64,000 nt of DNA from positions 59,119 through 123,118 of the IMG/VR virus record IMGVR_UViG_2974629454_000001, one strand, 5' to 3'. Position numbers and translations under genes: made by a program. Every line of letters starts with the position of its first letter. Position 1 is the stretch's first letter. Below the pieces are notes generated by a model, which saw only the letters and a list, made by a program, of their open reading frames with translations, searched no databases and had not been told where the DNA came from. Origin of the DNA: Streptomyces virus LukeCage (Duplodnaviria > Heunggongvirae > Uroviricota > Caudoviricetes). Shown here one piece after another: positions 2,519-36,629 of the stretch.

Positions 2519-2716
2519 ATGGAAGAGGCAGTAAAGGCGGAGGATCTTCTCCGCCTTCTGCTCCTCGCAAAGGGTGATATCGTAATCACCGCAGAGGAGC
2601 TGGAAAGAGCGGTCAATGATCGCACACGTTATTCAGTGGGTCTGAGTCATGATCCGCTTAAGAAGGAATTCACCTTTCACCTGATTGGAAACAATGAACG
2701 ACCTGTCAATGACTGA
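2519..2716 (+). CDS. hypothetical protein
   Basis: ORF track; AGGAG Shine-Dalgarno sequence directly after the dnaE stop; same strand as neighbours. Confidence 0.45.
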   Translation: MEEAVKAEDLLRLLLLAKGDIVITAEELERAVNDRTRYSVGLSHDPLKKEFTFHLIGNNERPVND

Positions 2717-3044
2717 TTACCAGATGGCTGCTGCTGAAACTGGCATCTATCCTGGTCATGGCGAAGCCACCACCGAGGCCATCAATTACACCATTCTTGG
2801 CCTGGTGGGAGAGGCTGGTGAAATCGCCAACGGATTCAAGAAGTCAATCCGAGATGAGAATGGCGTAGTAACTGCTGAGAAGGCGCAAGCGCTAGCTGCT
2901 GAGCTGGGAGATGTGCTTTGGTACGTTGCCAATCTTGCCAGTGAGCTTGGGTATCCGCTTGAGCTAATCGCTAAGCAGAATCTCCAGAAGCTAAAGTCTC
3001 GGGCCGCCCGTGGAGTGATTTCAGGTAGCGGAGACAACCGATAA
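2685..3044 (+). CDS. mazG: MazG-like nucleoside triphosphate pyrophosphohydrolase
   Basis: EAGEIANGF...LGDVLWYVANLA is a MazG/HisE-type all-alpha NTP-PPase motif. Confidence 0.75.
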   Translation: METMNDLSMTDYQMAAAETGIYPGHGEATTEAINYTILGLVGEAGEIANGFKKSIRDENGVVTAEKAQALAAELGDVLWYVANLASELGYPLELIAKQNLQKLKSRAARGVISGSGDNR

Positions 3045-3060
3045 CTGATATACTTGCTCC

Positions 3061-3345
3061 ATGAGCACAGAAGCATATTTCCTCCGGGGAGTCGAAGAAG
3101 AACACCTATTGGTATTCCGAGGCGATGACCCGGAGGAAATTTTGTTTATCATTAAGCGGTTGGCCGCCTGCCGCGATAAGAAAATAAAGGCAATGGCAGA
3201 AAAACTTGAAGAGGAATGGAACCGAAGAGAATATGGAACTGGAAGAGGAGATCCTAGCAAAGCTAAGTCCCAAGGTGCTAGCGCGGGCGAAGATGGGCTC
3301 AGAAGTAATTCTTCAAAAGCAGCCGACCCCAAGCACAGGACTTAA
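3061..3345 (+). CDS. hypothetical protein (C-terminal part overlaps the RecA-like gene in another frame)
   Basis: ORF track; the first ~60 aa look protein-like but the tail is low complexity. Confidence 0.3.
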   Translation: MSTEAYFLRGVEEEHLLVFRGDDPEEILFIIKRLAACRDKKIKAMAEKLEEEWNRREYGTGRGDPSKAKSQGASAGEDGLRSNSSKAADPKHRT

Positions 3346-4237
3346 TGCTGCATTGCGTGGAGGTATCGGCTACGGTCGTCAGACGCTAATCTGGGGCAGT
3401 AAGTCAGCCGGTAAGTCAACCTTCTGCCTGGGAACGCTAGGTCTGGCGCAGGCTGCGGGTAAGAAGGTAGCGTTCATCGACTCAGAGCAGTCCTTTGATC
3501 CGTCATGGGCTGAAAGACTGGGAGTCGACACAAGAAAGTTGATCTATACAGACGTAAAGACGATTGAAGATATGGTTGGGGCCGGTGTCGAATTTATGAA
3601 GGCTGGCATCGATGTTGTAACTGTAGACTCAATCTCAGCCCTATTGTCATCTGCATATTTTGAGAAGGACAAGAAGGGCGATGAGCTAAAGGAACTTAGC
3701 GGAACTAAGCAGATTGGTTCAGAGGCTCGTGAGCTTGCAAATGGTGTAAAGATGCTTAACTACGCCAACAAGAATACAGCACTTCTATTGATCTCACAGG
3801 TGAGAAACAAGATCACAACTTATGGCGCAATGCATCAGGCTACTGGTGGACATGCTGTAGACTTCTTTAGCAGCACGGTTATCAAGCTATGGTCATCTGC
3901 ACGTGAGGCCGATCAGATTCAGGGGGAAGTCTACAATGGAGACATGATTCTTAAGGAGCCTATCGGACGTGAAGTCACCTGGAGCATTGATAAGAACAAG
4001 CTAGGTCCGCCAAACAAGACCGGAAGTTACAACCTATTCTACGATGGTTCATTCATCGGAATTGATAATCTTGGCGAAGCCATCGATCTGGCAATCGCTC
4101 TGGGAATTGTAGAAAAGAAGGGCAACTGGCTTTACTACCAGGACATTAAGGAAAATGGCAAGGCCGGATTCACTGCTGTTCTGAGGGCAAGCGAGGAGCT
4201 TTCCGCCAAGCTAATTGGGGAGGTGGAAAGTGCATAA
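3233..4237 (+). CDS. RecA-family ATPase (Sak4/RadA-like recombinase); start uncertain (TTG 3206, ATG 3233 or ATG 3296)
   Basis: Walker A GSKSAGKST followed by FIDSEQSFDP and a RecA-like core. Confidence 0.7.
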   Translation: MELEEEILAKLSPKVLARAKMGSEVILQKQPTPSTGLNAALRGGIGYGRQTLIWGSKSAGKSTFCLGTLGLAQAAGKKVAFIDSEQSFDPSWAERLGVDTRKLIYTDVKTIEDMVGAGVEFMKAGIDVVTVDSISALLSSAYFEKDKKGDELKELSGTKQIGSEARELANGVKMLNYANKNTALLLISQVRNKITTYGAMHQATGGHAVDFFSSTVIKLWSSAREADQIQGEVYNGDMILKEPIGREVTWSIDKNKLGPPNKTGSYNLFYDGSFIGIDNLGEAIDLAIALGIVEKKGNWLYYQDIKENGKAGFTAVLRASEELSAKLIGEVESA

Positions 4238-4427
4238 TCCTTTCGAAGAAACCCCGGCGCAAGAGAGGCCGATTCAGCCAGGCATTTTGATTGATGGAAG
4301 CTTCTCTTGTATGACCTGTGGTGAAGTGGTTGACGAAGCGGAGTATTTGCCAGTCGATAAGATTCTCGGTTGGCTGTGCTCAGAAGGACATAAGTCCTTG
4401 ATTGAAAACTTTAACCTAGGAGCGTAA
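4230..4427 (+). CDS. Zn-ribbon protein (GTG start)
   Basis: GGAGG Shine-Dalgarno 7 nt upstream of GTG; cysteine/histidine pattern CMTCGEV...CSEGH. Confidence 0.45.
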   Translation: MHNPFEETPAQERPIQPGILIDGSFSCMTCGEVVDEAEYLPVDKILGWLCSEGHKSLIENFNLGA

Positions 4428-4747
4428 TGACAGAGCTGAATGAGATTAAGAGAGACGGCGGAAAAGCTCAAAAGAATTCTGGCCGTGGAAAGATTCAAAA
4501 GGGCGATGCCAAGCTAGGTCCATTCTGTTACGACATCAAGGAGTATGCTAATTCCTTTAGTGTCTCTAAGGATGTTTGGGGGAAGGTTTGCACAGATGCC
4601 TTCCGATCTGGTAGGATGGTACCGGCACTCAAGCTAGTTCTTGGAGCTGGCGATGAGAAGACCCGAGTTTGGGTCATCGGAGACAATATGTTTCACGAGA
4701 TGCTAGAAGCATGGGAGGAGAAGTATGGCGAAGCTAATGAGAGTTGA
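4427..4747 (+). CDS. hypothetical protein
   Basis: ORF track; the ATG overlaps the upstream stop (TAATG). Confidence 0.5.
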   Translation: MTELNEIKRDGGKAQKNSGRGKIQKGDAKLGPFCYDIKEYANSFSVSKDVWGKVCTDAFRSGRMVPALKLVLGAGDEKTRVWVIGDNMFHEMLEAWEEKYGEANES

Positions 4748-4937
4748 GTTTATCCGTCGTGATAATGGCGGATGGATGGTTTACGAGAAGTTTGAAGATG
4801 GAGCTGAGCAGGGCGGCCCGGTGGGATATGAAGAAGCCCGTCACGTCCTTGCAAATGCCTTCGGTGAAACCAATACCGAACCATTCAATATGGATCTAGT
4901 TAAGGAATCAGATGAAGCTAGTAATAACGGTTCCTGA
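4725..4937 (+). CDS. hypothetical protein
   Basis: ORF track; same strand as neighbours. Confidence 0.45.
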   Translation: MAKLMRVEFIRRDNGGWMVYEKFEDGAEQGGPVGYEEARHVLANAFGETNTEPFNMDLVKESDEASNNGS

Positions 4938-5094
4938 ACAAGTATTCGAGTACGAGATTCCAGACTATGTTGCTGAACGCTATCGTGAAATGATGGCTGA
5001 GCCTCACGAAGAATGGGAGGAGCAGGACTTCTGGGATACTTGGACATCTGATACATGGCCCGAAACATATTTGGAGGTAGTTGATGACGACTGA
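4912..5094 (+). CDS. hypothetical acidic protein
   Basis: ORF track. Confidence 0.4.
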   Translation: MKLVITVPEQVFEYEIPDYVAERYREMMAEPHEEWEEQDFWDTWTSDTWPETYLEVVDDD

Positions 5095-5425
5095 GGAAAA
5101 CCCTCTCGTCCTCATTTCAAGGATTTCTGAGTTCCAAGAAGTTCATGAATTCATGGAAGACGAAGATCTTGACAGGGCTCTGCACTATGTGATCAAGTTG
5201 ATGATGAAGCCAGACGTAAAAAACCCGGTGGCAGCACAACAACTCATTATTCAACTACAAGCATATGCAGCCAAGTTTGCCATGATGGCTACGATCTATT
5301 CTACAATCAAGAAGGATCGTGGTGGAACAGTAAATGGAATGAAGAAGAACATCTACTATACAGCCGCAGCCGAACTGGATAAGGTTGTTCAGTCCTTGAA
5401 GTATTCATTCAAGACTCAAGTATGA
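5081..5425 (+). CDS. hypothetical protein
   Basis: ORF track. Confidence 0.5.
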   Translation: MMTTEENPLVLISRISEFQEVHEFMEDEDLDRALHYVIKLMMKPDVKNPVAAQQLIIQLQAYAAKFAMMATIYSTIKKDRGGTVNGMKKNIYYTAAAELDKVVQSLKYSFKTQV

Positions 5426-5448
5426 TACAATGATATTCGTTAAGAGAA

Positions 5449-6231
5449 ATGGATACTATGTCTACAGGACTAATCAAAACAGTGCGGCTAGGGAAGAAGC
5501 TGTCTTTCGACACTAAGAAGTTTCTTTCTATCGTTGAGCAGGCTTATGTCAACTCACGGCCGAAGAGTAAGTATTCCAAGAAGGTTTCCTTTTCTCCATC
5601 TTCTGTAGGCTATGGTGCTGGTACTTGTCCAAGGTACTGGTACCTAGCCTTTACAGGTGGAGAATTCGAGAATACCTTCGACGGACTAAGTGTCGCCAAT
5701 ATGGCTAATGGTACGGCAGCTCACGATAGAATCGAAAAGCTATTTGCTGACGCAGGCGTACTTGAAGAAGCAGAGCGTGAAATCACACATCAGAATCCCC
5801 CAATCAGGGGATTTGTTGATGTTATCGTGAACTTTGAGGGAAAGCGTGTAGTCGGAGAGTTTAAGACAACTCGACAGGAGTCTTACATTCATCGTGAGGC
5901 AACTGGAACGGCTATCGATTACCACAAGGTTCAGGTCCTTATTTATATGCGTGTCCTCGGTCTAGACGAGGGCTTTGTTCTTTATGAGAACAAGAACACG
6001 CAGGAGCTTTTCCTTGTGCCTGTAATCATGGACGAGGCAAATGCTGAATATACGGACTACATCTTCAACTGGATGAACGAAGTTCGAAAGCTGTGGGAAG
6101 AAGATAAGCTTCCTACGCGGCCATTCAGTCAGAAGAATAAGGCATGCAAGTCATGCGCGCTATTCAATCTGTGTTGGAACGAATCTCCAGAAGGCGACGT
6201 TACTAAGGCACCATTGGAGGTGAAGAAGTAA
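5449..6231 (+). CDS. Cas4-like PD-(D/E)XK exonuclease with a C-terminal Cys cluster
   Basis: GFVDVIVNFEG...EFKT fits a D...E.K nuclease core; C-terminal CKSCALFNLC fits an Fe-S/Cys module. Confidence 0.7.
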   Translation: MDTMSTGLIKTVRLGKKLSFDTKKFLSIVEQAYVNSRPKSKYSKKVSFSPSSVGYGAGTCPRYWYLAFTGGEFENTFDGLSVANMANGTAAHDRIEKLFADAGVLEEAEREITHQNPPIRGFVDVIVNFEGKRVVGEFKTTRQESYIHREATGTAIDYHKVQVLIYMRVLGLDEGFVLYENKNTQELFLVPVIMDEANAEYTDYIFNWMNEVRKLWEEDKLPTRPFSQKNKACKSCALFNLCWNESPEGDVTKAPLEVKK

Positions 6232-6513
6232 TTGATTTGCGCCTATGGAGAGTGCGGCAACATGTTTGAACCCAAGACTCATAATCAGAAGTTTTGTAGT
6301 TCAGCATGTTGCCGTAAGGCGACCAACGCACGAATTATGGAAAAGTATTACGCCAGACGTGATCGTAAACGAGGAAAAATACGAACATGCTCTGAGTGCC
6401 CGACTGTTCTTTCCCGATATAACAGCTCAGAAAAGTGCGAGGGTTGCCAGGGAAAGACGCGGCGGGATGAGAGGGCCGAACTTTTGGAGTTGATTGGTAG
6501 TGCCTCTTTCTGA
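6232..6513 (+). CDS. Cys-rich Zn-finger protein
   Basis: Multiple CxxC pairs. Confidence 0.5.
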   Translation: MICAYGECGNMFEPKTHNQKFCSSACCRKATNARIMEKYYARRDRKRGKIRTCSECPTVLSRYNSSEKCEGCQGKTRRDERAELLELIGSASF

Positions 6514-6541
6514 CCTTCACAAGACGAAGGCTCAGAAGGTA

Positions 6542-7069
6542 ATGGGTATCGACTGCTCAACTAAGTCTATTGCATTTACAATCTTCGATGGAGAAAACTT
6601 CTACAGATGTGGAGAGGTTAATTTCAACGGTGAAACAGTTTTTGACAGAACTTATGACGCTCACGTAAAGACTTTGGCACTATTCGAAGAGTTCACTCCT
6701 GACTTTGTAGCAATCGAAGCGGCGATTATGGTTCGAAGCACATCAGTAGCTATCAAGATGGCTTATGTGTTTGGTGCAGTGATCGCTGCATTGCTCAAGA
6801 ATGGAGCGAAGGTAATTGAAGTGCCTCCTATGAGCTGGCAGTCATTTATTGGAAACAAGATTTTGACTAAAGCTGAGAAGGATGCAATTAAGGCTGAGTT
6901 CCCCGGAAAGTCTGCAAGCTGGTATCAGAATAAGGGCAGACAAATCAGGAAGCAGCGAACCATCACCTTTGCCAAGGATAAATTTGGCATCGAGCTAGAA
7001 AGCGATAACGTGGCTGACTCACTAGGAATTGGCTGGTGGGCAGTACAGAACAAAACTAGAAGGAGCTAA
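6542..7069 (+). CDS. RuvC-like Holliday junction resolvase
   Basis: N-terminal MGIDCSTKSIAF matches the RuvC GID.S motif, with VAIEAA downstream; Shine-Dalgarno GAAGGT precedes the ATG. Confidence 0.65.
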   Translation: MGIDCSTKSIAFTIFDGENFYRCGEVNFNGETVFDRTYDAHVKTLALFEEFTPDFVAIEAAIMVRSTSVAIKMAYVFGAVIAALLKNGAKVIEVPPMSWQSFIGNKILTKAEKDAIKAEFPGKSASWYQNKGRQIRKQRTITFAKDKFGIELESDNVADSLGIGWWAVQNKTRRS

Positions 7070-7070
7070 C

Positions 7071-7535
7071 ATGATAGTAGCGGGAACTGGACATCGAGAT
7101 CTGAGGGACCGTGACTGGATTGCTGGCCAAATCGAGAAGGCCCTCATTGATATGGGGGCCTCTCTTGTTTACGTCGGCATGGCCTCTGGAGCTGATCTCC
7201 TAATGGCGAAAATCTCTTGGGGTCTAGGTATTCCATTCATTGCTGCAAAGCCGTGGAGGGGTCACAAGCCTCGCCAGGCCGATGAGTATGACTACGGTCG
7301 AGCGCTTCACTACGCAGACGAGGTTATCAATGTTACCAACTATGACAGCTACCCTGGTGCATGGGTGTACGAGGAGCGAAACCGGTACATGGTTGACAAC
7401 GCTGATGCCTATCTGGCAGTATTGGAAGCTGGTAGGACTGGTGGCACGTACAATTGCGTCAAGTACGCATCCCGCAAGGGCAAGTCAGGCATAATCATCG
7501 ACCCTCTGATGAGGGAGGTGACAAAGCTTGGCTAA
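7071..7535 (+). CDS. SLOG/DprA-like Rossmann-fold protein
   Basis: MIVAGTGHR, GMASGADLL and VLEAGRTGGT resemble DprA/YpsA-type motifs; AGGAG Shine-Dalgarno. Confidence 0.5.
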   Translation: MIVAGTGHRDLRDRDWIAGQIEKALIDMGASLVYVGMASGADLLMAKISWGLGIPFIAAKPWRGHKPRQADEYDYGRALHYADEVINVTNYDSYPGAWVYEERNRYMVDNADAYLAVLEAGRTGGTYNCVKYASRKGKSGIIIDPLMREVTKLG

Positions 7536-7677
7536 GCTATATGAGAGCAAGGCGTGGTTGCAGGAAAGATATCGCAGAAAGACTGCGGCTCAGATTGCTA
7601 AGATCTGTGGTGTCTCTGAAATGACGATCACTCGATGGCTCGCAAAACATAATATTCCAATCAGGAGGAGCCGATGA
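7528..7677 (+). CDS. small HTH DNA-binding protein (49 aa, TTG start)
   Basis: AAQIAKICGVSEMTITRWL is a helix-turn-helix motif; GGAGG Shine-Dalgarno; its stop overlaps the next ATG. It is not in the ORF track because it is under 60 aa. Confidence 0.45.
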   Translation: MAKLYESKAWLQERYRRKTAAQIAKICGVSEMTITRWLAKHNIPIRRSR

Positions 7678-8465
7678 GATATAATTCTCGTCAAGAAGTC
7701 GAACGCGCTGGAGAGCGCGGCGCAAAGAGTGAAACAGATGAGCGAGGCACGCGCTATTGGATGCTAGACAGCTTCTGGATGTATGCAGAAGATGATGACT
7801 ACGCAATGACTCCACATTTTGCAGCGGGCCGGTGCTATTGGGAATCATGGGTTACAGCCTATATTTCTCAAAGGGTAGAGCCAGACGCAGTATTTGTAGA
7901 TGTTGGTGCTAATCTGGGCTACTACTCCTTGTGGGCTGCGAAGCATGGATGCAACGTATTTGCGTATGAACCAAACCACGAATTGTGGATGAAGCTATTC
8001 AACGCAAAGAGACTAAACGATCTAAAGATCTATCAGGGTCACGTTGCCCTTGGCGATAGCTGGGAGCCGGTGGAAAAGATTCTTTACATTCCAGAAGGTC
8101 ATTCTGGCGGAGCCAATATGTATGGTGCCAGTGGTAATTACACAATGCAGCATATGTATGTACAGAGTTTCGATAACGCAGTTCCTATTCCACGAGATTA
8201 CGATGGCACAATCTATGTCAAGATAGATGCCGAGGGCGCTGAGCCAGAGATTTTCGCAGGAATGAAATGGTGCTGGAAGCAGAGATCAATGGTTCTATTC
8301 ATGGAATGGGATCTCACCCGATACGATAAGTCATTTGGTGAAAAGCTTCTTGACAGTGGTAAGGTCAGCCTGATAGAGTACGATGGTACAGCCAGAGAGC
8401 TAGATCTTGATGGTCTACTGAGCCTAAAGGAACTACGAATGATTGTGGTGGAAAACAACAAGTGA
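7674..8465 (+). CDS. FkbM-family methyltransferase
   Basis: VFVDVGANLGYYSLW is the FkbM SAM-binding motif. Confidence 0.75.
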   Translation: MRYNSRQEVERAGERGAKSETDERGTRYWMLDSFWMYAEDDDYAMTPHFAAGRCYWESWVTAYISQRVEPDAVFVDVGANLGYYSLWAAKHGCNVFAYEPNHELWMKLFNAKRLNDLKIYQGHVALGDSWEPVEKILYIPEGHSGGANMYGASGNYTMQHMYVQSFDNAVPIPRDYDGTIYVKIDAEGAEPEIFAGMKWCWKQRSMVLFMEWDLTRYDKSFGEKLLDSGKVSLIEYDGTARELDLDGLLSLKELRMIVVENNK

Positions 8466-9085
8466 TTAAGATCGGAATGACCGGTGCTCAAGGCACTGGA
8501 AAAACATCAATGGCTCAAGCCATGGCACAAAGCCCGGCGTTCAAGGATTTCGTCCTTGTTCCATCAACAGCTAGACAGATCAAGGAATACGGCTACCCAA
8601 TCAATAGGGAAGCGACAGAGCTAAGCCAACTCCTTGTTCCAGTTCTTCGAATGGTGGACGAGTGGGAAACCATGACCAGTCCACAAAACACTCTGTATAA
8701 GCAGGGAATCATTTCTGACAGAACACTGATCGATTCACTGGCATACACCTATTACCAGAATGAATACGTCTGGGAGGATGGTGCACTCATTGAGAATGTG
8801 ACCAGACGACTGACAGAGATGCACATGCAGTCATACCACTTCGTCCTATATTTCCCAGTGTATTGGGAAGCAGAAGAAGACGGTGTGAGAGATGCAGATG
8901 AATCATATAGGAATCGTATTGATGACTATGTCATTCAGTCTCTAGAAATGCTGAATGTTCCCTATCTGACAGTTCCAGATATCTCACCAGAGGATCGAGT
9001 AGAATGGTTCATTGGTGAAGTACAGGAGCTATATGCCGAAGCAGAGAAGCAGTACCTACGCCGATTCGGCAATGGTCTGCTATAA
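8462..9085 (+). CDS. P-loop NTPase (AAA_28/NadR-like kinase family)
   Basis: Walker A GMTGAQGTGKTS. Confidence 0.55.
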   Translation: MIKIGMTGAQGTGKTSMAQAMAQSPAFKDFVLVPSTARQIKEYGYPINREATELSQLLVPVLRMVDEWETMTSPQNTLYKQGIISDRTLIDSLAYTYYQNEYVWEDGALIENVTRRLTEMHMQSYHFVLYFPVYWEAEEDGVRDADESYRNRIDDYVIQSLEMLNVPYLTVPDISPEDRVEWFIGEVQELYAEAEKQYLRRFGNGLL

Positions 9086-10002: not shown

Positions 10003-11826
10003 TTGATGTCAACAGATTTCACCGAGTTCTTCAATGCACTCTCTGATGAGGACTTTGAAGAGATTCCAGTCGATATTGAAACATTCGTGCAGAGTCAAGA
10101 CTATTTGGGAATGCCTCATCTGTCCGAATATCAGTATCAGCTTATTCGTGCATCCAGTCAGATTTACAAGGAGAGCACTCTTTACAACATTTACGAAGCA
10201 CAAAAGGCCCGGCAGAGATGGGCAGAGACATGTAACGAAGTCATTGCCTGTCTAGGTAAGGGTAGCGGTAAGGACTTCACATCCACCATCGCTTGTGCGT
10301 ATATCGTATATCTATTGCTATGTCTACGTAATCCAGCTAAGTATTTTGGTAAGCCTGCTGGAGACTCCATTGACATTTTGAACATCGCCATCAACGCAGC
10401 GCAGGCCAACAACGTCTTCTTCAAGGGCTTCAAGAGCCGTATCGAGGGGTCACCATGGTTTGTAGGAAAGTTCACGACTAAGGCGGGTCACATCGCATTT
10501 GATAAAAACGTGAACGTTTACTCAGGCCACTCCGAGCGTGAAGCCTGGGAGGGCTACAACCTGATCTACTGTGTGCTTGACGAGATCTCTGGTTTTGCAC
10601 TAGACTCTACATCAGGTAACGAACAGGCTAAGACGGCCGATGCTGTCTATAAGATGTATCGAGCATCTGTAGACTCTCGATTCCCAGCAGAAGGAAAGGT
10701 AGTTCTTCTATCATTCCCTCGCTTCAAGAACGACTTTATCTCTCAGAGATATGAAGCTGTTGTCGCTGATAAGCAGGTAATCGAGCGTAGCCACACATTT
10801 AAGCTTGATCCAGACCTTCCTGATGAAATTGAAGAAAACAAGTTCTCCATCAGGTGGGAAGAGGATCATATTATTTCCTACAACATTCCACGTGTATATG
10901 CATTGAAGCGTCCTACGTGGGAAGTCAATCCTACTCGTAAGATTGAAGACTTTACCACTGCATTCTTCACTGATCCTGTCGACGCATTGTCTCGATTTGC
11001 ATGTATGCCACCTGACGCAATTGATGCCTTCTTCAAGGACAAGGAGAAGGTAGAAGCGGCATTTTGTCGCCAAAACCCAATTGATGAAGATGGAACATAC
11101 AGTCCTGATTTTGTGCCAAAGGAAGGCGTGCGCTACTACGTTCACGTTGACCTTGCGCAGAAGCATGACCGTTGTGCCGTAGCACTAGCACATGTGGAGA
11201 AGTTTGTCCAGAAGAAAATCGGTGGGCAACTAAACGAAGTCCTGCCTTTTGTTGTAGTTGATGCTGTAAGATGGTGGACACCGAAGCCAGGTCAAGACAT
11301 TGACTTTGCCGACGTTCGAGAGTATATTACAGGATTGAAGCGAAGAGGATTTGACCTCAGACTTGTCACCTTTGACCGATGGAACTCTAATGACCAGATG
11401 AAGTATCTGCGAGGAGTTGGAATCAACTCAGAGGTCTTGTCTGTGGCAAAGAAGCATTATGAAGACTTGAGCTGGGTTGTCTATGATCAAAGGCTTGTTG
11501 GTCCAGATGCTGGTGTTCTTCGCAGAGAGCTGCTACAGTTGAGAATCATGCCGAACGACAAGATTGATCACCCAAGAACTGGATCAAAGGACTTGGCGGA
11601 CGCGGTGTGTGGAGCAGTTCACAATGCAATTACATACACTCCTCGTGAAGAGAACGCTGTCATTGAAGTGCAAACTTATCAGACTCTTCGACGTGCTGAG
11701 ATTCAGGCTCGTCAGGAAGAGGTTGACAGCCAGCGAGAACGTGATAATGTAATTATAGCTCCTCGTGAGAGGCGTGAGATGCCTGATGACATTCAGGAAT
11801 ATCTCACAAGGCTAGAAATTATCTAA
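10003..11826 (+). CDS. terminase large subunit
   Basis: Walker-A-like GKGSGKDF; C-terminal RNaseH-like Asp motifs (VHVDLAQKHDRC, IDHPRTGSKDLADAV); HNH endonuclease immediately downstream. Confidence 0.65.
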   Translation: MMSTDFTEFFNALSDEDFEEIPVDIETFVQSQDYLGMPHLSEYQYQLIRASSQIYKESTLYNIYEAQKARQRWAETCNEVIACLGKGSGKDFTSTIACAYIVYLLLCLRNPAKYFGKPAGDSIDILNIAINAAQANNVFFKGFKSRIEGSPWFVGKFTTKAGHIAFDKNVNVYSGHSEREAWEGYNLIYCVLDEISGFALDSTSGNEQAKTADAVYKMYRASVDSRFPAEGKVVLLSFPRFKNDFISQRYEAVVADKQVIERSHTFKLDPDLPDEIEENKFSIRWEEDHIISYNIPRVYALKRPTWEVNPTRKIEDFTTAFFTDPVDALSRFACMPPDAIDAFFKDKEKVEAAFCRQNPIDEDGTYSPDFVPKEGVRYYVHVDLAQKHDRCAVALAHVEKFVQKKIGGQLNEVLPFVVVDAVRWWTPKPGQDIDFADVREYITGLKRRGFDLRLVTFDRWNSNDQMKYLRGVGINSEVLSVAKKHYEDLSWVVYDQRLVGPDAGVLRRELLQLRIMPNDKIDHPRTGSKDLADAVCGAVHNAITYTPREENAVIEVQTYQTLRRAEIQARQEEVDSQRERDNVIIAPRERREMPDDIQEYLTRLEII

Positions 11827-13721: not shown

Positions 13722-14184
13722 AGCATTAGGAGCGATATGGGATACTACACCTCGATACCATCTTGAGATCGTCAGAGACAGTGAGAGAGCTAAGGATCTC
13801 ATTGATAATGCTGATAATGTCACCATTCCTGGAAGCTACGAACTGAATCTATCTAGACTGCTCAACGACAACTATGATACGATGAAGTGGTACGACTGGG
13901 AAGACGACATGGCTAGCCTGTCTAGAGATTGGCCAAACGTTCTGTTTGCCCTGAGTGGTGAAGGAGAGGAGCCCGGTGATCTTTGGAAGGCTTGGGTAAG
14001 AAACGGCAAGGTCATTAAGGTAGAGGGCAGAATCGTTTACGATGTCCCGAACCTTGACAAGGTGCTTCCGATCAACGATACTGTAGAAGAGAAGTACAGA
14101 GCAGAGAAGAAGGCAGAGCTTCAAGCCACTATCAAGGATCTTGAGAACAGGCTACAGGAGCTTAAGGGTCTATCTAAGGATTGA
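13702..14184 (+). CDS. hypothetical protein; start unresolved
   Basis: Long ORF. The only in-frame start upstream is a GTG inside the terminator hairpin. A Shine-Dalgarno-supported ATG at 13737 is in the +1 frame and stops after 9 codons. Confidence 0.4.
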   Translation: MLRCRGLALGAIWDTTPRYHLEIVRDSERAKDLIDNADNVTIPGSYELNLSRLLNDNYDTMKWYDWEDDMASLSRDWPNVLFALSGEGEEPGDLWKAWVRNGKVIKVEGRIVYDVPNLDKVLPINDTVEEKYRAEKKAELQATIKDLENRLQELKGLSKD

Positions 14185-14185
14185 T

Positions 14186-14353
14186 ATGGCACTCACTGGA
14201 AACCGCGATACTTGTTGGTTTCAGCGATGTGGCAATAAACCAATCCATCGAATTAGGTACTACAACAAGACCGTAATGGTTTGCAACAAGCACAAGAATC
14301 TCGATGGAGCAGGTTGTGCGCCAAGTCGCAGAAAGCCAAAGGGTTCAGCTTGA
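14186..14353 (+). CDS. Cys4 Zn-ribbon protein
   Basis: Shine-Dalgarno AAGGA; CWFQRCGN...CNKH. Confidence 0.45.
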   Translation: MALTGNRDTCWFQRCGNKPIHRIRYYNKTVMVCNKHKNLDGAGCAPSRRKPKGSA

Positions 14354-14407
14354 CAGACGCTACTGGGTCTGTTAGTATTAAGTACAACGCAGCGACAAAG
14401 CTGCTAT

Positions 14408-14479
14408 CTGGCACGGGGAAGATGGTAATCCATTCGCTTTGGAAGCGTAAGAAACCCGGTTCGATTCCGGGGTGCCAGA
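14408..14479 (+). tRNA. tRNA-Pro(UGG), C1:G72
   Basis: Acceptor ctggcac/gtgccag; loop tttggaa; T arm cccggttcgattccggg. Confidence 0.6.
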
Positions 14480-14502
14480 CTTGGACTGCAAAAGCAGTCT
14501 AT

Positions 14503-14577
14503 CGGGATGTAGCTCAGCTTGGTCAGAGCGCGCCGTTTGGGGCGGTGAAGTCGCAGGTTCGAATCCTGTCATCCCGA
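14503..14577 (+). tRNA. tRNA-Pro(UGG)-like second copy, C1:G72
   Basis: Acceptor cgggatg/catcccg; D arm gctc/gagc; loop tttgggg; T arm gcaggttcgaatcctgt. Confidence 0.55.
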
Positions 14578-14740
14578 CAATTTGGGTCGAATGGGATACG
14601 GTTATCATTCAATGGATAATAGGTTCGATTCCTATCGCTGGGTTCGCCCGGTAGATACAAGTCATCTGAGATTGTGTGTGGTAGGATGACATTAAGGACT
14701 ACACACTATCCGTTCCCGCCTTATACCTAAAGGACTTATT

Positions 14741-15262
14741 ATGACGGTACTTCTTAGGACTATCCACGGAAGCCATCTATATGGCCTCGCTCACAAAGGC
14801 TCTGACAAGGACATTTACGAAGTAATTGCAACCAGTCGAACCAAGCGTAAGCGAAACATTAAGCAAACCATTGTGAATGGTGTTGACAAGACGACGGTAG
14901 ATATGTCAACATTTATGAATATGGTTGATGAATGCGTACCTCAAGCACTTGAAGCGCTATGGACGCCGGTCGCTGAGATCGATAAGATCCACGAATTCCG
15001 GACTCAATATCGAGTGAATCGCGCCAAGATGAAGGAAGTATACATTCGAACCGCTCTAAACTTCGCTAAAAATGATGGAGTAAAGCAGAGGCGACACGCT
15101 ATCCGCCTGCTTCTCAATCTCGGCGCAGCTTTGGAATACGGAAAGTTTAACCCTCAGCTCTCCAACATGGACAAGTTCATTCTTGAATCTTCTATGGGCG
15201 AGACTGGAGCATATGAGGATGTCTTCCTAGGCGTTCTCGATGAAGTACAAAAGTGGGTCTGA
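14741..15262 (+). CDS. nucleotidyltransferase-fold protein (MNT-like)
   Basis: HGSHLYGLAHKGSDKD fits the GS...DxD motif. Confidence 0.55.
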   Translation: MTVLLRTIHGSHLYGLAHKGSDKDIYEVIATSRTKRKRNIKQTIVNGVDKTTVDMSTFMNMVDECVPQALEALWTPVAEIDKIHEFRTQYRVNRAKMKEVYIRTALNFAKNDGVKQRRHAIRLLLNLGAALEYGKFNPQLSNMDKFILESSMGETGAYEDVFLGVLDEVQKWV

Positions 15263-15279: not shown

Positions 15280-15356
15280 TGGGGCGTATACCCTCTGTCT
15301 GATAAACAGTTGAAAGGTTAAGTGGTCACATGTGGGTTCAACTCCCACCGTCCCAA
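15280..15356 (+). other. tRNA-like element (acceptor stem plus canonical T arm; internal arms non-canonical)
   Basis: tggggcg ... gtgggttcaactcccac cgtccca. Confidence 0.35.
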
Positions 15357-15395: not shown

Positions 15396-17207
15396 ATGGT
15401 GGATTTCGACAAGAAGCATTCAAAAGAACTTGTGAAACTCCCTGACTCAGACCTAGAGCTTAGCTCTAGGTCTTTTAGGCTTTCCAGTCAGGGAGCGCTT
15501 AAGCATGTCTCAGGAGGGGCACGCCTAAGCATGAAGAATCTGGTTGACTGGTTGACTGTCGCAGACTACAAGATTGAGATTGCTAAGGCTAGACACGAAG
15601 GTAATCATGAGAAGGCTCGCAAGCTCCGAATGGAACAACAGAAGCACGCACAACCACGCAGGAAGAGATTCTACATTTGCGTAGCGGCGTCTCTAGCGAT
15701 GACAGCATGGCTTACAAGTGCCTTCGGTGCTGTCACATTTGGCGCGGTGGCAGTCAGTCTCTTGATCGCCTTTGCCATAGTAGGAGTAACTAACAAGACT
15801 TACATCTTCGGCGAAGAAGCAGAAGATCGGGAAGAAGATGCTATGGCACCTTTCCCAATTGCAGATGCTCGTAACAGAGAAGAAGCGATTGAGTGTCTAC
15901 GCAGAGCATTGCTTGCAGAGGGAATCACTCCTCGAAATATCCTTGAACCAACTCGATACAATTGGGGTTGGGAATTTCCAGTCATTCTTCGTAAGGGCAC
16001 TCCTGATGATGTAATGGCTAAGACCAAGGATATGGAAACTTTGATGAGACTTCCTGCTGATGGAATGCTTGTTGCAGCTACCAGATTCCGAGCCGAAGTA
16101 ATTATTCGTCTTATGCAGTCCGACCCATTTGCTGACATGACTGGACAGGGCAGAGCTGAGCCTCTATCTCGTTCAATCAAAAACAAGTACAAGGTCGCCC
16201 AGCGTATGGACGGACAGTTCCTTGAAATGTCTCTTCTAAGAAATCACGCAGTCATCATCGCCGCGCCTGGTGGTGGTAAGTCTATGTTCATGAGAACACT
16301 AGCAGACATTACGACGAGTTGTCGTGACTGTGTAACTTGGGACATTGACCCCGGTGGAAATGGTCTTGAAGTATTCGGAGATGCTATTGCACGTAGAGGT
16401 AGAACAGAAGCTGAAATTGAGGAAATGCTCACCGAGGCTCTTGAGTACACTAAGATTCGTGCAAAGAAGCTGACAAAGCTTCGCATGGGAGATAACTGGC
16501 AGCCAACGAGGGAACACCCTGCATTGGTAATCTTCATTGATGAGTTTATTCAGCTCAGCAAGAAGTGCAAGGATCTCGCCGTAGACATCATCCGTAATGG
16601 ACGTAAGTCAGCAATCACAGTCATTCTAGCTGCACAGCAGGCAACCAAGGATCAGCTTGGAGCGGCCATTGCAGACGCTGTATCAATTAAGATAATGTTT
16701 GCCTCTCGTCATGCCGACGTTCCTTTGGTATTTGGAGAGGGAGCCCTAAGTCAGGGTTGGAGGCCAGATAAGCTACACCCTGCCTCTGGAGAAGATCCAG
16801 AGGACGCAGGTAAGTGCTACATTATGGGCGGTGGCTCAAGAGAGCCATATCTCTACAAGGCATTCCCGATTGATCCAGATGAAGCTATTGAGATTGGTGA
16901 TGAGCGAGCCGGTGAAGGAATTGTCGAACTGGATAAGGACACTTATCTAGACGTAACAGTCACAGATGTAACAGACAGGAGACTGCTCGAAGACATCATG
17001 GACATCTTTGAGAACTTTGACGAGCATGACTGGCTGCCTGCCAGCATCTTGACTAAGGAACTCCGAGGTTACGGACACACCTTGACAGCTCGTCAGCTCC
17101 ATGAGATTCTAGGTAACACCGGTCGGGAGAGCCGAGTATGGGAAGGCTCTAAGTACAAGGTTGCCGGTTACTTTAGGAAGAACATCGAGAAGCAACTGGA
17201 GCAATAA
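15396..17207 (+). CDS. FtsK/SpoIIIE-family DNA translocase ATPase with an N-terminal transmembrane segment
   Basis: Hydrophobic segment at residues ~95-125; Walker A AAPGGGKSMF; Walker B VIFIDEF. Confidence 0.7.
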   Translation: MVDFDKKHSKELVKLPDSDLELSSRSFRLSSQGALKHVSGGARLSMKNLVDWLTVADYKIEIAKARHEGNHEKARKLRMEQQKHAQPRRKRFYICVAASLAMTAWLTSAFGAVTFGAVAVSLLIAFAIVGVTNKTYIFGEEAEDREEDAMAPFPIADARNREEAIECLRRALLAEGITPRNILEPTRYNWGWEFPVILRKGTPDDVMAKTKDMETLMRLPADGMLVAATRFRAEVIIRLMQSDPFADMTGQGRAEPLSRSIKNKYKVAQRMDGQFLEMSLLRNHAVIIAAPGGGKSMFMRTLADITTSCRDCVTWDIDPGGNGLEVFGDAIARRGRTEAEIEEMLTEALEYTKIRAKKLTKLRMGDNWQPTREHPALVIFIDEFIQLSKKCKDLAVDIIRNGRKSAITVILAAQQATKDQLGAAIADAVSIKIMFASRHADVPLVFGEGALSQGWRPDKLHPASGEDPEDAGKCYIMGGGSREPYLYKAFPIDPDEAIEIGDERAGEGIVELDKDTYLDVTVTDVTDRRLLEDIMDIFENFDEHDWLPASILTKELRGYGHTLTARQLHEILGNTGRESRVWEGSKYKVAGYFRKNIEKQLEQ

Positions 17208-18880: not shown

Positions 18881-19096
18881 ATGGCAATGAGCGATCAGGA
18901 AGAAGTTCGCTTTTACTACAAGCTTGTGCGTGAACTTCCTGAAAAGGAAAGAGTTTACAAGGAGATGCTTAAGAACATTCGTGGTCTTAAGGGTGCAGAA
19001 AAGGATAAGGCTTCAAGGAAGGCCCTTCCTTATGGCATGGAGATTGGTGGAATGAAGGAAACCATCAAGTCTCTCAAGAAGAAGCACAAGCTGTGA
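18881..19096 (+). CDS. hypothetical protein
   Basis: ORF track. Confidence 0.5.
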   Translation: MAMSDQEEVRFYYKLVRELPEKERVYKEMLKNIRGLKGAEKDKASRKALPYGMEIGGMKETIKSLKKKHKL

Positions 19097-19485
19097 ACGC
19101 TGTACTCATCGGCGTTCTACTGCATTTCGTTGGTGACTATCTAATCCAGACGGATTGGATGGCTCAATTGAAGACAAAGAGATGGGCACCGGCCATTCTT
19201 CACGGAGTGACTTATGGTGCTCCATTTCTTTTTGTCACGCAGTCATGGCTAGCTCTACTAGTCATCATTGGAACGCATATCATAATTGATCATTATCGTC
19301 TGGCTCGTCATGTAGTCTGGGCAAAAAACCAATTGGCTCCGCGCGAGTTTAGATACTCCTGGGCCGAAGGTAGCAAGACAGGATACAGAGATGACGCACC
19401 TGTGTGGCTTACCACGTGGCTGATGATCATTGCTGACAACACTATTCATATTGCTATCAATACACTAGCCATCCTCTACCTATGA
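19093..19485 (+). CDS. membrane protein (GTG start)
   Basis: Several hydrophobic helices. Confidence 0.5.
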   Translation: MNAVLIGVLLHFVGDYLIQTDWMAQLKTKRWAPAILHGVTYGAPFLFVTQSWLALLVIIGTHIIIDHYRLARHVVWAKNQLAPREFRYSWAEGSKTGYRDDAPVWLTTWLMIIADNTIHIAINTLAILYL

Positions 19486-19494
19486 GGGTGGCTT

Positions 19495-19640
19495 TTGTCA
19501 TGTCACGACTGTCATGACATCGAGGTGACATGTCACGGTGACAGTGACACTTTTGTCACGGCCTCTGTCACGCTGTCACGCATTGAACAATGTCACGGTG
19601 TCACTCTGTCACGTGACACTTTTCTGATTTGTCACGGGCG
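19495..19640. repeat. iteron-like array: 8 perfect TGTCACG heptamers plus variants and inverted GTGACA, followed by a very AT-rich tract (19700-19820)
   Basis: Seen directly in the sequence at 19501, 19531, 19554, 19566, 19574, 19591, 19607 and 19630. Confidence 0.7.
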
Positions 19641-19821
19641 CGGCGGGCCGGTGCGGAGGGGTTACGTCTTTGCGGTTCTCCATATATCTAAAGGATACAA
19701 GGAAGGAGTTGACAGAACGACAGAGACCTGTTAAGGTAAATTATACTGGGAAGAGAAAAGAAAAAGAGTAAGTGAAATCGGTTTAGAAATCGATACCAAA
19801 TAATAATATAGGATAGTATAT

Positions 19822-21807: not shown

Positions 21808-21843
21808 AACTAAATGCCCTACGAGGGCCGGAAAGGAAACAAA

Positions 21844-23472
21844 ATGTCCAACGCACTAACTAATGCCGCAAAGGCAACCAACAAGACTTCTCAGAAGCTG
21901 CCAGCAAAGGCAGGACAGGTCAAGAACAACGCTGGTGGATTCGTCTTCCAGGTTTCTGATCAGTCACGCCTTGAGCGCTTTCTGATTCTTGGAACCGATG
22001 GAGGAACGTATTACGTTTCTGAGGTTAACCACACTCAGTCAAACGTAACCTTCCTCAACGAGATGATTGAGCGAGACGAAGCCTCTGTACTGAACACAAT
22101 TGTTGATGTATCTGTCAATGGTCGTGCGTACAAGCAGTCTCCTGCCCTGTTCGCTCTAGCCTCTGTCATTGTCAACGGCAAGGATAAGCAGGCGGTCAAG
22201 GCGGTATTCAACAGGGTCGTAAGGACTGCTACTCACCTCTACGAGGTGGTTAACTACCTTAACGAGCTTGGTGGATGGGGTCGCGCAAAGCGAGAGATCG
22301 TAGCTGGCTGGTTCGACAAGGACGCTGATAAGCTTGCTTATCAGGCTGTCAAGTATCGTTCCCGCACGTTCGGTGGAAACACCTGGACGCTACGAGACGT
22401 AATGCGAAAGGCTCACCCACAGAACGTCAACACGTCTGTTGCTGATTTCGTCCTTGGCAAGGAGCACGCGGCTGTAGATGACCTCCGGGTTATCGAGGGC
22501 TTCAAGCTTATGCAGAAGGCGGAGTCTGTAGAGGCTGTTCACGCAGTTCTGCGGGATTACGAGATGCTTAGCTGGGAGACTATTCCAACGCAGTTCCTCA
22601 CGGATGCTAGCGTTTGGAAGCGACTCTTTGCTAATGGTCAGCTTCGTGGTCAGGCTGCTGTTCGAAACATCACTCGCCTCGCGCGTATTGGTGCTTTCAA
22701 GGACATGCGGTTCGCTGCGAACTTTGCTAGCCAGCTAGCGAATGAGGAAATGATTCGTCAGTCTCGACTGCACCCAATTAACTTCCTTAACGCTGCCGTT
22801 GTTTACGCAGAAGGCCAGGTGGATCGAAAGAACATCTGGGGCGGACGTGTAAAGAACTGGGAGACTGAGGCCGTTATTGTCGATGCAATCGATGAGGCGT
22901 TCCACAAGTCATTCAAGACCATTGAGCCAGCCGGTAAGAGGACGATGCTAGCCATCGACTGTTCCGGTTCAATGAGCACACAGGCTATGGGTCTCGACCT
23001 AAGCTGTGCGCAGGTTGCTGGTGCTATGGCAATGACCATTGCTCGTACTGAGCCAGCTCACATCATCCGTGGTTTCTCTTCACAGGGATACAACTGGCGT
23101 GATAGCGGTATGGCTGAACTAAAGATTACTGGTCGCAGCTCTCTTGCTCAGGCAATGAGTGCAATGCGTGCGGTAAACTGGGGAGGCACAGACTGCTCAC
23201 TGCCAATGACGTGGGCTCTTGAGAATGGTGTGGAAGTTGACACCTTCGTTGTTATCACTGATAACGAGACGTGGGCTGGCAAGATTCACCCATTCCAGGC
23301 TCTCAAGAACTATCGTAAGAGCACAGGTATTGATGCACGACTTGCTGTTCTAGGAGTCGCTTCAACTCCATTCACTATTGCTGATAGTTCCGACCGAGGG
23401 ATGATGGATTTCGTAGGGTTCGACAGCAATGCACCTCGTGTGCTCGCTGACTTCTCTGCGGGTCGCATCTGA
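21844..23472 (+). CDS. rsr: Ro60/Rsr orthologue (TROVE domain + C-terminal vWA)
   Basis: N-terminal RLERFLILGTDGGTYYVSE is the Ro60 signature; C-terminal metal-ion-dependent adhesion site (MIDAS) IDCSGSMS and VVITDNETWAG; length is typical of Ro60. Confidence 0.8.
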   Translation: MSNALTNAAKATNKTSQKLPAKAGQVKNNAGGFVFQVSDQSRLERFLILGTDGGTYYVSEVNHTQSNVTFLNEMIERDEASVLNTIVDVSVNGRAYKQSPALFALASVIVNGKDKQAVKAVFNRVVRTATHLYEVVNYLNELGGWGRAKREIVAGWFDKDADKLAYQAVKYRSRTFGGNTWTLRDVMRKAHPQNVNTSVADFVLGKEHAAVDDLRVIEGFKLMQKAESVEAVHAVLRDYEMLSWETIPTQFLTDASVWKRLFANGQLRGQAAVRNITRLARIGAFKDMRFAANFASQLANEEMIRQSRLHPINFLNAAVVYAEGQVDRKNIWGGRVKNWETEAVIVDAIDEAFHKSFKTIEPAGKRTMLAIDCSGSMSTQAMGLDLSCAQVAGAMAMTIARTEPAHIIRGFSSQGYNWRDSGMAELKITGRSSLAQAMSAMRAVNWGGTDCSLPMTWALENGVEVDTFVVITDNETWAGKIHPFQALKNYRKSTGIDARLAVLGVASTPFTIADSSDRGMMDFVGFDSNAPRVLADFSAGRI

Positions 23473-28439: not shown

Positions 28440-28493
28440 CTTTGATGGTAAACGCGATATCATCAAATGCATATCAGGTCGCTCCTGATATGA

Positions 28494-28619
28494 GGAGTGT
28501 AGTTTAATTGGCAAAACCGCGAAATGCAATGTCGAACGGGAAGTGCTGCTGAGCTAAAGGCAGGTCTTACCTTAGTAGATATCAGAGTAGCAGTTGCGGG
28601 TTCGAGTCCCGTCACTCCG
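28494..28619 (+). other. 126-nt tRNA-like RNA: acceptor + D arm + T arm with about 50 nt inserted between the D and T regions
   Basis: ggagtg...cactcc acceptor; D arm gttt-aattggca-aaac; T arm gcgggttcgagtcccgt; two hairpins upstream (28441-28491). Confidence 0.3.
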
Positions 28620-28759
28620 CTAGCCTGAGATGACGATCCGATGTAGGTCCCCTAGGGCTTGCGCAGGCCCGAAGGGCATTCGGGAAAGGTGCCTAGCTAG
28701 GTCCGTCTACCAATAAGGTGAGAGTTTTTCACGGTTTTCCTCATAATTAAACCGTGTTT

Positions 28760-36557: not shown

Positions 36558-36629
36558 GCATGTAAGCCAGGGATAAGCTAGGCGGGCCTGTAAAGCCCTA
36601 CCTTGTTGGTTCGAATCCAACTACATGCA
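36558..36629 (+). tRNA. class I tRNA with anticodon GUA (Tyr-decoding) and no long variable arm
   Basis: Acceptor gcatgta/tacatgc; anticodon arm gggc-ctgtaaa-gccc; T arm gttggttcgaatccaac. Confidence 0.5.

Follow-up and report, generated by a model that had tools for sequence, protein, structure and literature searches.

The stretch of DNA analysed here (the window, 64,000 nucleotides) is 100% identical to Streptomyces phage LukeCage (NC_048723.1, 133,195 bp), and record positions are obtained by adding 59,118 to window positions. LukeCage is a Karimacvirus of the Boydwoodruffvirinae and is placed by relatedness in actinophage subcluster BE2. The BE-type phages are presumed to be lytic siphoviruses; their genomes, at about 49% G+C, encode more than 40 tRNAs and carry terminal repeats of about 12 kb, and their hosts have 71-72% G+C (PMC10690885). 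The locus of interest is the 336-bp gap between gp120 and gp121, which holds, in this order, a terminator hairpin, a cluster of short repeats that we call array B and that takes up the first 140 bp, a GC-rich block, a promoter, and an AT-rich leader with a small hairpin (Table 1).

Table 1. Features of the array B locus and of the related loci in the LukeCage genome. Positions are those of the window unless marked as record positions.
Feature	Position	Strand	Description
gp110	15396-17207	+	FtsK/TraB-like DNA translocase
gp120	19093-19485		DUF3307 membrane protein, upstream transcription unit
Lone outlying TGTCACG	19233-19239	+	Within the gp120 gene
Terminator-like hairpin	19467-19493	+	10-bp stem, then TTTTG; found by terminator scan; closes the gp120 unit
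79-codon ORF	19495-19734	+	Spans array B; annotated as a gene in some relatives
Array B	19496-19636	both	16 TGTCA[C/T] sites in 141 bp: 11 on +, 5 on -
GC-rich block GGGCGCGGCGGGCCGGTGCGGAGGGG	19636-19661		Between array B and the promoter region
Predicted sigma-70/HrdB-type promoter	19709-19737	+	TTGACA (19709-19714), 17 nt, TAAGGT (19732-19737)
AT-rich gp121 5' leader	19738-19821	+	Conserved small hairpin at about 19777-19794, ribosome-binding region
gp121	start 19822		94-aa protein; neighbour of array B
Array A	record 14081-14506	both	29 TGTCA[C/T] sites, 15 of them full heptamers; outside the window
Gene 33 (gp33)	record 14141-15025	-	DUF2637 four-helix membrane protein

The initial annotation had reported eight perfect TGTCACG copies accompanied by inverted and TGTCATG variant sites, and our analysis bears out both observations. 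The eight copies on the + strand start at 19501, 19531, 19554, 19566, 19574, 19591, 19607 and 19630, a ninth lies on the - strand at 19612-19618, and nine of the 16 sites are therefore the full heptamer; the remaining 63.9 kb of the window hold just six more copies. The hexamer TGTCAC is found 13 times within 19501-19635 (nine on the + and four on the - strand) and 29 times elsewhere in the window, a number no higher than chance would give. We describe the recognition element as a core TGTCAY with the best form TTGTCACG, and some of the sites pair as palindromes (GTGACATGTCAC, TGTCACGTGACA). The start-to-start spacings are irregular (5, 9, 4, 11, 6, 7, 6, 10, 12, 8, 17, 8, 8, 6 and 17 bp), and no helical phasing of the array B sites was found, the phase resultant being 0.21-0.25 at 10.5-11 bp and 0.11 at 22 bp, with a maximum of 0.36. 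As a chance control, 100 first-order Markov simulations of the window were scanned in 136-bp stretches; the simulated maximum was two heptamers and three hexamers per stretch, compared with nine and 13 observed.

The possibility that the heptamer is merely a common k-mer was raised together with its original description, and the similar genome-wide density that this would imply was not seen: outside both arrays the 133,195-bp genome has 16 copies of TGTCACG, a chance density, and with array B alone excluded the density is 0.23 per kb. When every 6-mer was scanned for local clustering across the whole LukeCage genome, TGTCAC/GTGACA gave the two strongest clusters, exactly two in number, which are array B and a larger one in and beyond gene 33 that we call array A. 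The genome-wide motif enrichment that had been proposed confirms the clustering and shows that the motif is not confined to this locus. In addition, 185,579 genomes were searched for sets of three heptamers lying close together, which returned at least 120 scattered matches in unrelated bacteria. Three of those loci were inspected; one Streptomyces match proved to be a coding repeat and the other an unclear locus without an evident link to the array. There was no sign of host copies at the loci inspected. No mention of the arrays was found in the literature searched on BE phages or their satellites.

The features that surround array B were examined one by one. The stem of the terminator hairpin is invariant or compensated in seven relatives, and since the terminator precedes the array, little read-through transcription is expected across it. 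This bears on the explanation that array B has no binding function and is a side effect of a small gene, of a structured RNA, of terminators in tandem or of a k-mer that is simply common, which we consider extremely improbable. It is true that the 79-codon ORF spans the array; its protein, however, is only 37% identical, with gaps, where the DNA is 81.5% identical, the frame crosses the promoter, and it has no PHROG match, so that we rejected it as a gene, and the same probably holds for the ORFs that several GenBank records annotate across array B. Likewise, motif copies within the array form two terminator-like hairpins and the RNA fold of 19460-19670 has a z of -4.4, but this good score could be traced to the upstream terminator and to the self-complementary motif copies, the covariation term of the consensus fold is unfavourable (+2.19), and the pairs break in divergent relatives; a structured RNA was rejected on these grounds. 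The single-strand DNA fold at array B has a z of -1.7, and an Rfam scan of the whole window at gathering thresholds returned only tRNAs and the tmRNA, with nothing at array B. Moreover, the k-mer is at chance elsewhere in the genome, and neither array A nor the arrays in homologous genes described below can be explained as by-products of this kind.

Downstream of the array, a GC-rich block of the same kind is kept in Karimacvirus and in LilMartin, and a small hairpin with G-C/C-G swaps is seen at it. The TTGACA that had been noted as a promoter-like box is part of a good predicted sigma-70-type promoter, although the hexamer starts one nucleotide later than the 19708 first given. Both of its hexamers are invariant across seven aligned genomes, and this predicted promoter drives gp121 and the genes after it. 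About 40 promoters of the rightward arm share its design (perfect TTGACA at -35, a spacer of 16-18 nt, and TAnnnT at -10), and as these lack the array, it is not a general part of such promoters. The AT-rich stretch of 80 bp, put at about 75% A+T in the initial annotation, is real, with a measured content of 72.5-73.75% in the 80-bp windows starting at 19729-19757, which belong to the five genome segments richest in A+T (top 0.03% of windows). The order of the two elements had been misread: TTGACA does not follow the AT-rich tract but lies upstream, overlapping its first bases only. The tract is about 75-100 bp downstream of array B, with the GC-rich block in between, and another of the top five spots directly follows a consensus promoter (record 50766/50786). 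Given these similar promoters and a similar leader elsewhere, what is peculiar to the locus is the array, not the promoter or the AT-rich leader.

The gap can be aligned across 34 Karimacvirus records. In five Karimacvirus relatives, the site columns are 94% identical to LukeCage compared with 76% for the spacers (Fisher P = 1e-11, a value that carries no phylogenetic correction). Arrays at the same position, between the DUF3307 gene and the next gene, are present in Karimacvirus, Samistivirus and Coruscantvirus. In LilMartin (Samistivirus) the gap has TGTCAC, TGTCAT and TGTCCC sites that are rearranged relative to LukeCage, and in Coruscant (Coruscantvirus) it has six TGTCAC sites abutting the -35 box, with seven further GTGACA/TGTCAC copies in the DUF3307 gene. 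Turnover of single sites at a constant position is what marks a cluster of binding sites. Array B of Wofford has decayed in its right half, with array A intact, which means that array B may be dispensable. The proposal of a dense array of specific protein-binding sites finds support in the clustering, in the higher conservation of sites than of spacers, in synteny with turnover and in the existence of a sister array. On this comparative evidence, array B is a genuine, selected cluster of candidate protein-binding sites.

One candidate role for such a cluster is that of an operator or enhancer array controlling the promoter at 19709-19737, where it might act as a timing switch for the block of gp121, tRNA-Asp and the Ro-like gene. 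The array always lies upstream of this invariant promoter, its last sites in Coruscant abut the -35 box, and dense arrays of mixed orientation are typical of some phage regulators. We nevertheless regard this role as quite unlikely. The distance from the array to the -35 box varies from about 10 to 170 bp between genera, about 40 near-identical promoters have no array, no operator-like pairs of the motif occur elsewhere in the genome, and array A lies in a coding region with no credible promoter found after it.

Array A covers the 3' 365 nt of gene 33 and runs about 60 bp beyond the stop codon, and no AT-rich neighbour was found beside it. Within gene 33 either strand carries the motif, each time in two reading frames, and only the frame that creates TGA is avoided; the encoded stretch is rich in VT, RDK and DK. 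The product, gp33, matches DUF2637 (PF10935) over residues 23-165 with 30 bits (cut-off 22.8), and phrog_10376 matches full-length both gp33 and the proteins of the two satellites discussed below. A structural model built with 27 homologues shows four long helices in the membrane and, with good confidence, a domain of three helices at the C-terminus, at about residues 236-294 (pLDDT 82 when modelled alone); the linker between them, residues 180-242, is disordered (pLDDT 31-36) and corresponds exactly to the array-bearing part. Across homologues this linker is hypervariable in length and sequence and stays rich in the residues that the motif encodes. In array A, a feature of the DNA is superimposed on a linker that is hypervariable and disordered; given that the linker is shaped by selection at the DNA level, its peptide repeats should not be over-interpreted. 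The C-terminal domain is, as modelled, a predicted HTH-like three-helix fold whose best structural match is a small-terminase HTH domain. A profile of this domain gave nothing significant against PDB sequences and Pfam, a Foldseek search of the PDB with the full-length gp33-type model gave no meaningful match, and no Rep, ATPase (AAA+), primase, helicase or helicase-loader domain was found in gp33. Homology of the gp33 family to SpdB was not supported: the pIJ101 SpdB has no DUF2637 Pfam match, the hhalign probability is 2%, and the likeness is limited to the four-helix membrane layout and the gene neighbourhood (GntR, FtsK-like).

Homologues of gp33 were identified in 102 phage records, including all BE-type phages, the Wakanda-type phages and the satellites MiniFlayer and Mulchroom, as well as in integrated Mulchroom-like elements of Streptomyces chromosomes. 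The satellites have been reported to lack replication genes (replicase, primase) and to share a predicted membrane protein (PMC10690885, PMC13587820), and the shared membrane protein of the first of these reports (PMC10690885) matches the DUF2637 genes found here. In an unbiased scan, the strongest k-mer cluster of each satellite lay inside the 3' half of its own DUF2637 gene, whose product is gp15 in Mulchroom and gp19 in MiniFlayer. The Mulchroom array has about 25 copies of CGACA and about 16 of ACGACA (motif TGTCGT/CGACA) in three reading frames, and that of MiniFlayer has 13-15 copies of TGCGAA (TTCGCA), mostly in one frame, so that the latter could partly reflect an Ala-Asn/Lys peptide repeat. 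The TGTCAC motif itself recurs in the homologous genes of LilMartin, Coruscant and a metagenomic relative. In the 3' part of the gene, LukeCage, LilMartin, Coruscant, the metagenomic relative, Mulchroom and MiniFlayer have 11-23 copies of their respective motifs compared with a Markov-null maximum of 6-8, and the 5' halves of these phage and satellite genes show no motif enrichment against such nulls. On plasmid NZ_CP108353 (motif GAGCGC) the 3' part has 22 copies compared with a null maximum of 12, and the longer 5' part holds 13 copies of the overlapping hexamer CGCTCA. The arrays of the integrated satellites are borderline against Markov nulls, the Wakanda homologue keeps the C-terminal domain and has no in-gene array by the same measure, and none was found in three DUF2637 genes that are more distantly related and have different C-termini. 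In the C-terminal domain, the third helix differs with the motif: it reads xNT(I/V)xxAxSR with TGTCAC, STLNTCIQRY with TGTCGT and KAKVSKALSYT with TTCGCA.

The relation between satellites and helpers is informative about the identity of the reader. The helper of MiniFlayer has a TGTCACG array, no TGTCAC cluster was found in the MiniFlayer genome, and as the MiniFlayer motif is unrelated to that of the helper, the satellite array would not be read by the protein that reads the helper array. No FtsK-like gene was found in the satellites, and this, taken together with the unlike motif of MiniFlayer, indicates that the reader should be the DUF2637 protein encoded together with each array. Beyond the phages, at least 70 Streptomyces plasmids carry DUF2637 genes, next to genes of the transfer type. 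In two plasmids the DUF2637 gene comes after a GntR regulator, as in transfer/spread operons, and in one plasmid and one metagenomic contig FtsK/TrwB-like ATPases adjoin it.

Taken together, array B is the lesser of two loci in a system that is linked to a DUF2637 membrane protein with an HTH-like tail, and the arrays suggest a module for DNA handling that has not been described before, more than they suggest a classical replication origin. The explanation that we put first, tentatively and as a possibility that falls short of being probable, is that array B is a cis-acting docking site for the HTH-like tail of gp33, which would attach phage DNA to the membrane in a manner similar to the clt and sps sites of plasmids. 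The C-terminal domain would recognise the TGTCAY cores in arrays A and B, many membrane-anchored copies of gp33 would bind both arrays and so keep these two regions of the phage chromosome attached to the cytoplasmic membrane, and the complex would serve some step of phage DNA handling, as clt does with TraB and sps with SpdA2. We infer all three of its elements, namely the binding protein, the membrane tethering and the use of the complex. Several observations were counted against gp33 docking: the Wakanda homologue without an in-gene array, the borderline arrays of the integrated satellites, the unsupported homology to SpdB, the decay of array B in Wofford, the mostly single-frame repeats of MiniFlayer, and the fact that the arrays of the helper phages track gp110, which fits gp110 as the reader equally well.

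The closest plasmid parallels come from Streptomyces. The clt loci are clusters of 7-9-bp repeats that span about 50-200 bp and are read by TraB-type translocases, with an 8-bp TRS (PMC4447253, PMC3583192); that of pWTY27 has four 7-bp TGACACC repeats plus inverted repeats and is bound by TraA, and that of pJV1 has nine 9-bp repeats (PMC3583192, PMC4447253). As in clt (4-10 copies of 7-9 bp), array B is a cluster of short elements in non-coding or gene-end DNA, direct with some inverted and irregularly spaced, and the pWTY27 repeat TGACACC shares TGACA with the complement of the phage motif. The clt readers are FtsK-like motors anchored in the membrane that end in a winged helix, and LukeCage encodes a candidate motor of this type. 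In contrast to clt, the phage is presumed lytic, there are two loci per genome, the larger array lies in the DUF2637 gene and not at that of the translocase, and arrays occur in satellites that have no translocase. The second parallel is SpdA2 of pIJ101-type plasmids, which binds sites within its own gene (sps) and affects plasmid stability (PMC4170104). As in array A, these sites lie inside the coding region of the DNA-binding protein (PMC4170104), and with sps inside spdA2 the DNA motif imposes a recurrent peptide motif on the protein; however, sps is a 12-bp palindrome present one to three times, compared with 16-29 copies of a 6-7-bp core here, and SpdA2 is small, unrelated to DUF2637, and binds through its N-terminal region.

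The likeness to clt also supports gp110 as the reader, in which case array B would be a clt-like site recognised by the tail of the FtsK/TraB-like gp110; this translocase would load at the TGTCACG repeats and pump DNA, for example across cross-walls or in segregation. From its N- to its C-terminus, the protein consists of a membrane segment, a motor domain and a tail; by eye this tail looks winged-helix-like, and no domain match was found for it. Its PHROG is FtsK/SpoIIIE-like, Pfam gives only a weak AAA_22 match, and its homologues occur in BE-type phages only. The reading draws on the TraB layout of gp110 and its best curated (NCBIfam) family match, plasmid_TraB; on the known clt architecture that array B reproduces, with nine TGTCACG and 16 TGTCAY in 141 bp; on the position of the array, 2.3 kb past the end of the gp110 gene and on its strand; on the conservation of the gp110 tail across the genera that share TGTCAC; and on the helper phages, where the BE-type have arrays and gp110, the Wakanda-type lack gp110, and Wakanda lacks the in-gene array. 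Despite this, we judge it unlikely: the plasmid_TraB match is weak, scoring 32 bits where the cut-off is 800, arrays occur in satellites that lack any translocase, the TTCGCA of MiniFlayer could not be read by the helper translocase without a separate specificity, and the arrays are tightly linked in position to DUF2637 genes and not to the translocase gene. Wofford does not separate gp33 and gp110 as readers, since its translocase is 76% identical overall to that of LukeCage and nearly identical in the C-terminal tail. It is also important to consider that, as DUF2637 genes lie beside FtsK/TrwB-like ATPases, gp33 and gp110 may act together.

A replication origin, proposed originally as a secondary origin, would use the repeats as iterons for an initiator, possibly gp33, with the AT-rich tract unwinding with the aid of transcription from the promoter at 19709; in the satellites, the DUF2637 gene and its array would be the missing replicon. 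The layout of repeats, an AT-rich tract from the genome's top five and a strong promoter, both next to array B, agrees with this idea. In phage P4 two separated iteron clusters, ori and crr, with 8-bp elements, are read by a primase-helicase, and LukeCage likewise has a second repeat cluster elsewhere in its genome. In phage lambda, ori-lambda lies in the linker-coding part of the O gene itself, with phased iterons of 19 bp, and the repeats of array A also lie in the gene part that encodes a flexible linker between two domains. One metagenomic phage has its DUF2637 gene after YqaJ/RecT genes, a position frequent for replication genes, and the satellites, with no reported replicase or primase, must replicate, DUF2637 being among their few shared non-structural genes (PMC10690885).

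We consider an origin unlikely all the same, and it is not established by our results. Iteron origins have several direct repeats of about 17-22 bp, or shorter units, set in helical register; here the core has just 6-7 bp, the sites are spaced unevenly (4-17 bp) and point both ways, and they show no phasing (resultant no greater than 0.36). The Streptomyces DnaA box has the consensus TTGTCCACA; no match to it with up to one mismatch was found in 19495-19820, and its count across the window is at chance. There is no GC-skew inflection at array B, an observation of little weight since skew follows gene orientation, and no initiator-type gene adjoins the array, its neighbours being the DUF3307 protein and the 94-aa protein. 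The AT-rich tract lies about 75-100 bp off behind the GC-rich block and is a 5' leader whose promoter is one of about 40 similar ones, and the sister array has no AT-rich neighbour. Unlike the readers in lambda and P4, gp33 is an integral membrane protein with no enzymatic domain, that is, no ATPase, primase or helicase-loader. The at least 70 Streptomyces plasmids that bear DUF2637 beside transfer-type genes presumably have their own Rep and ori, and MiniFlayer has more classical repeats, four with a 22-bp period, in a different gene. As for the par site that had been suggested alongside the origin, nothing supports it: the phage is presumed lytic, no ParA is annotated in LukeCage, and the only ParB-related gene encodes a 119-aa fragment of the N-terminal domain without a Pfam match.

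Small-terminase genes offer a further comparison. Packaging (pac) sites with short repeats lie inside the small-terminase gene in P1 (pacA) and P22 (gene 3), and gene 33 resembles them in having a short-repeat array in the gene of a candidate HTH reader, with a tail that best matches a small-terminase HTH. It differs from them in that gp33 is a four-helix membrane protein, that the satellites have separate small and large terminases, and that both arrays lie outside the 12-kb terminal repeats, array A being separated from the left repeat by about 2 kb and array B from both repeats by tens of kb.

If docking by gp33 is correct, the arrays would belong to a cis/trans module common to large lytic Streptomyces phages, to satellites without a replicase and to at least one Streptomyces plasmid. 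It would offer a handle on the replication or partition of MiniFlayer- and Mulchroom-type satellites, which have no recognisable replication gene, and on why actinophages retain FtsK/TraB-like translocases. SpdB2 homologues on actinophages have been suggested to aid the spread of phage DNA (PMC4447253). A bolder version, which we hold to be very doubtful, is that BE phages and their satellites carry a plasmid-like DNA-spreading kit consisting of the TraB-like translocase, the DUF2637-HTH protein and the clt-like arrays. Viral genomes tethered to the membrane would then be pumped through hyphal cross-walls, the infection would spread without virions, and each satellite would bring its own adaptor and array to ride the same machine.

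Among the remaining repeats, two other k-mer clusters of the window, at about 47116 and 42489, were set aside as ordinary coding repeats, and a cluster of TATGTACC repeats lies at record 11.4 kb.

In the replicase-less satellite MiniFlayer, four copies of GTGTCTGTCCTC, repeated with a period of exactly 22 bp and accompanied by inverted GGACAG copies nearby, lie within gene 13, whose product has no match in PHROG or NCBIfam. These repeats resemble classical iterons more closely than does the array in the MiniFlayer DUF2637 gene, and we consider them a candidate origin of this satellite. In LukeCage itself, the 316 bp that separate the divergently oriented gene 26 and HNH gene 27 contain a cluster of approximately five copies of TATGTACC(C) and four of ATGCCC. 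This cluster belongs to the left terminal repeat, whose boundary is about 0.8 kb away, and may serve as a signal for packaging or replication.

Two plasmids with DUF2637 genes were also analyzed. In NZ_CP109008.1, the 8-mer GTGGGGCA/TGCCCCAC occurs ten times within 176 bp of non-coding DNA, to which all its copies in the 14-kb locus are confined. An operon with GntR, DUF2637 and FtsK-like genes lies 3.6 kb away, and the cluster resembles a clt or an origin. The second plasmid, NZ_CP108353.1 (93 kb), has a GAGCGC array inside its DUF2637 gene, whose protein shares 44% identity with gp33 over the membrane domain. Like LukeCage, it also has genes for a ParB N-terminal domain and for an HNH protein; it is possibly a phage-plasmid or some related kind of element.

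Several Streptomyces genomes contain integrated satellites similar to Mulchroom, of about 12-13 kb, beside a glutamine synthetase gene (loci L016-L019, from Streptomyces chromosomes and a contig of one sequencing run). This family of satellites is thus distributed more widely than the two to three described isolates would indicate. The genes of these integrated copies include integrase, HTH regulator, DUF6879, Lsr2, DUF2637, terminase, portal, scaffold and capsid.

In GenBank, a hypothetical protein is annotated across array B (the TGTCAC/TGTCAT sites between the gp120 and gp121 genes), namely gp123 of BoomerJR and its counterparts in PumpkinSpice, JimJam, Spelly, Enygma, Spilled, Birchlyn, Genie2, Sollertia and Yaboi. 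Based on our comparison, such ORF calls are probably spurious.

Around 40 near-consensus promoters of the sigma-70 type (TTGACA, 16-18 nt, TAnnnT) are distributed across the rightward tRNA-rich arm, many of them immediately preceding a tRNA gene or a small ORF, which suggests that LukeCage makes heavy use of the host primary sigma factor. All 42 tRNA genes called in the window are on the + strand, and three additional tRNA-like Rfam matches have no ARAGORN call; the one of 128 nt is possibly a tRNA with an interruption or an intron.

Features of the LukeCage window and of the comparison sequences
Feature	Sequence	Position	Detail
BoomerJR gp123	L004 (BoomerJR locus)	1564-1803	
GTGTCTGTCCTC repeats	OQ357865.1 (MiniFlayer, L011)	12249-12410	
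Gene 13	OQ357865.1	11911-13017	368 aa
TATGTACC/ATGCCC cluster	LukeCage record (L008)	11400-11520	outside window
8-mer cluster	NZ_CP109008.1 (L024)	540-716	
Locus with DUF2637 (in-gene array), ParB-N-terminal-domain and HNH genes	NZ_CP108353.1 (L021)	1-9016	
Sigma-70-type promoters (examples)	window	12980, 14350, 17419, 18224, 19709, 20253, 24380, 27156, 27500	
tRNA-like match	window	15280-15356	
tRNA-like match	window	28493-28620	128 nt
tRNA-like match	window	36558-36629	tRNA-Tyr in RefSeq
tmRNA, phage-encoded	window	39564-39844	tag peptide ANSNVASAYALAA
Ro60-like RNA-binding protein gene	window	21814-23472	TROVE + vWA

Bacterial Ro genes usually have a Y RNA or a YrlA-type RNA adjacent to them; neither was detected near the Ro60-like gene when the window was scanned with Rfam at gathering thresholds. 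A TROVE gene is also present in an unrelated metagenomic phage (L027) that has a DUF2637 gene.
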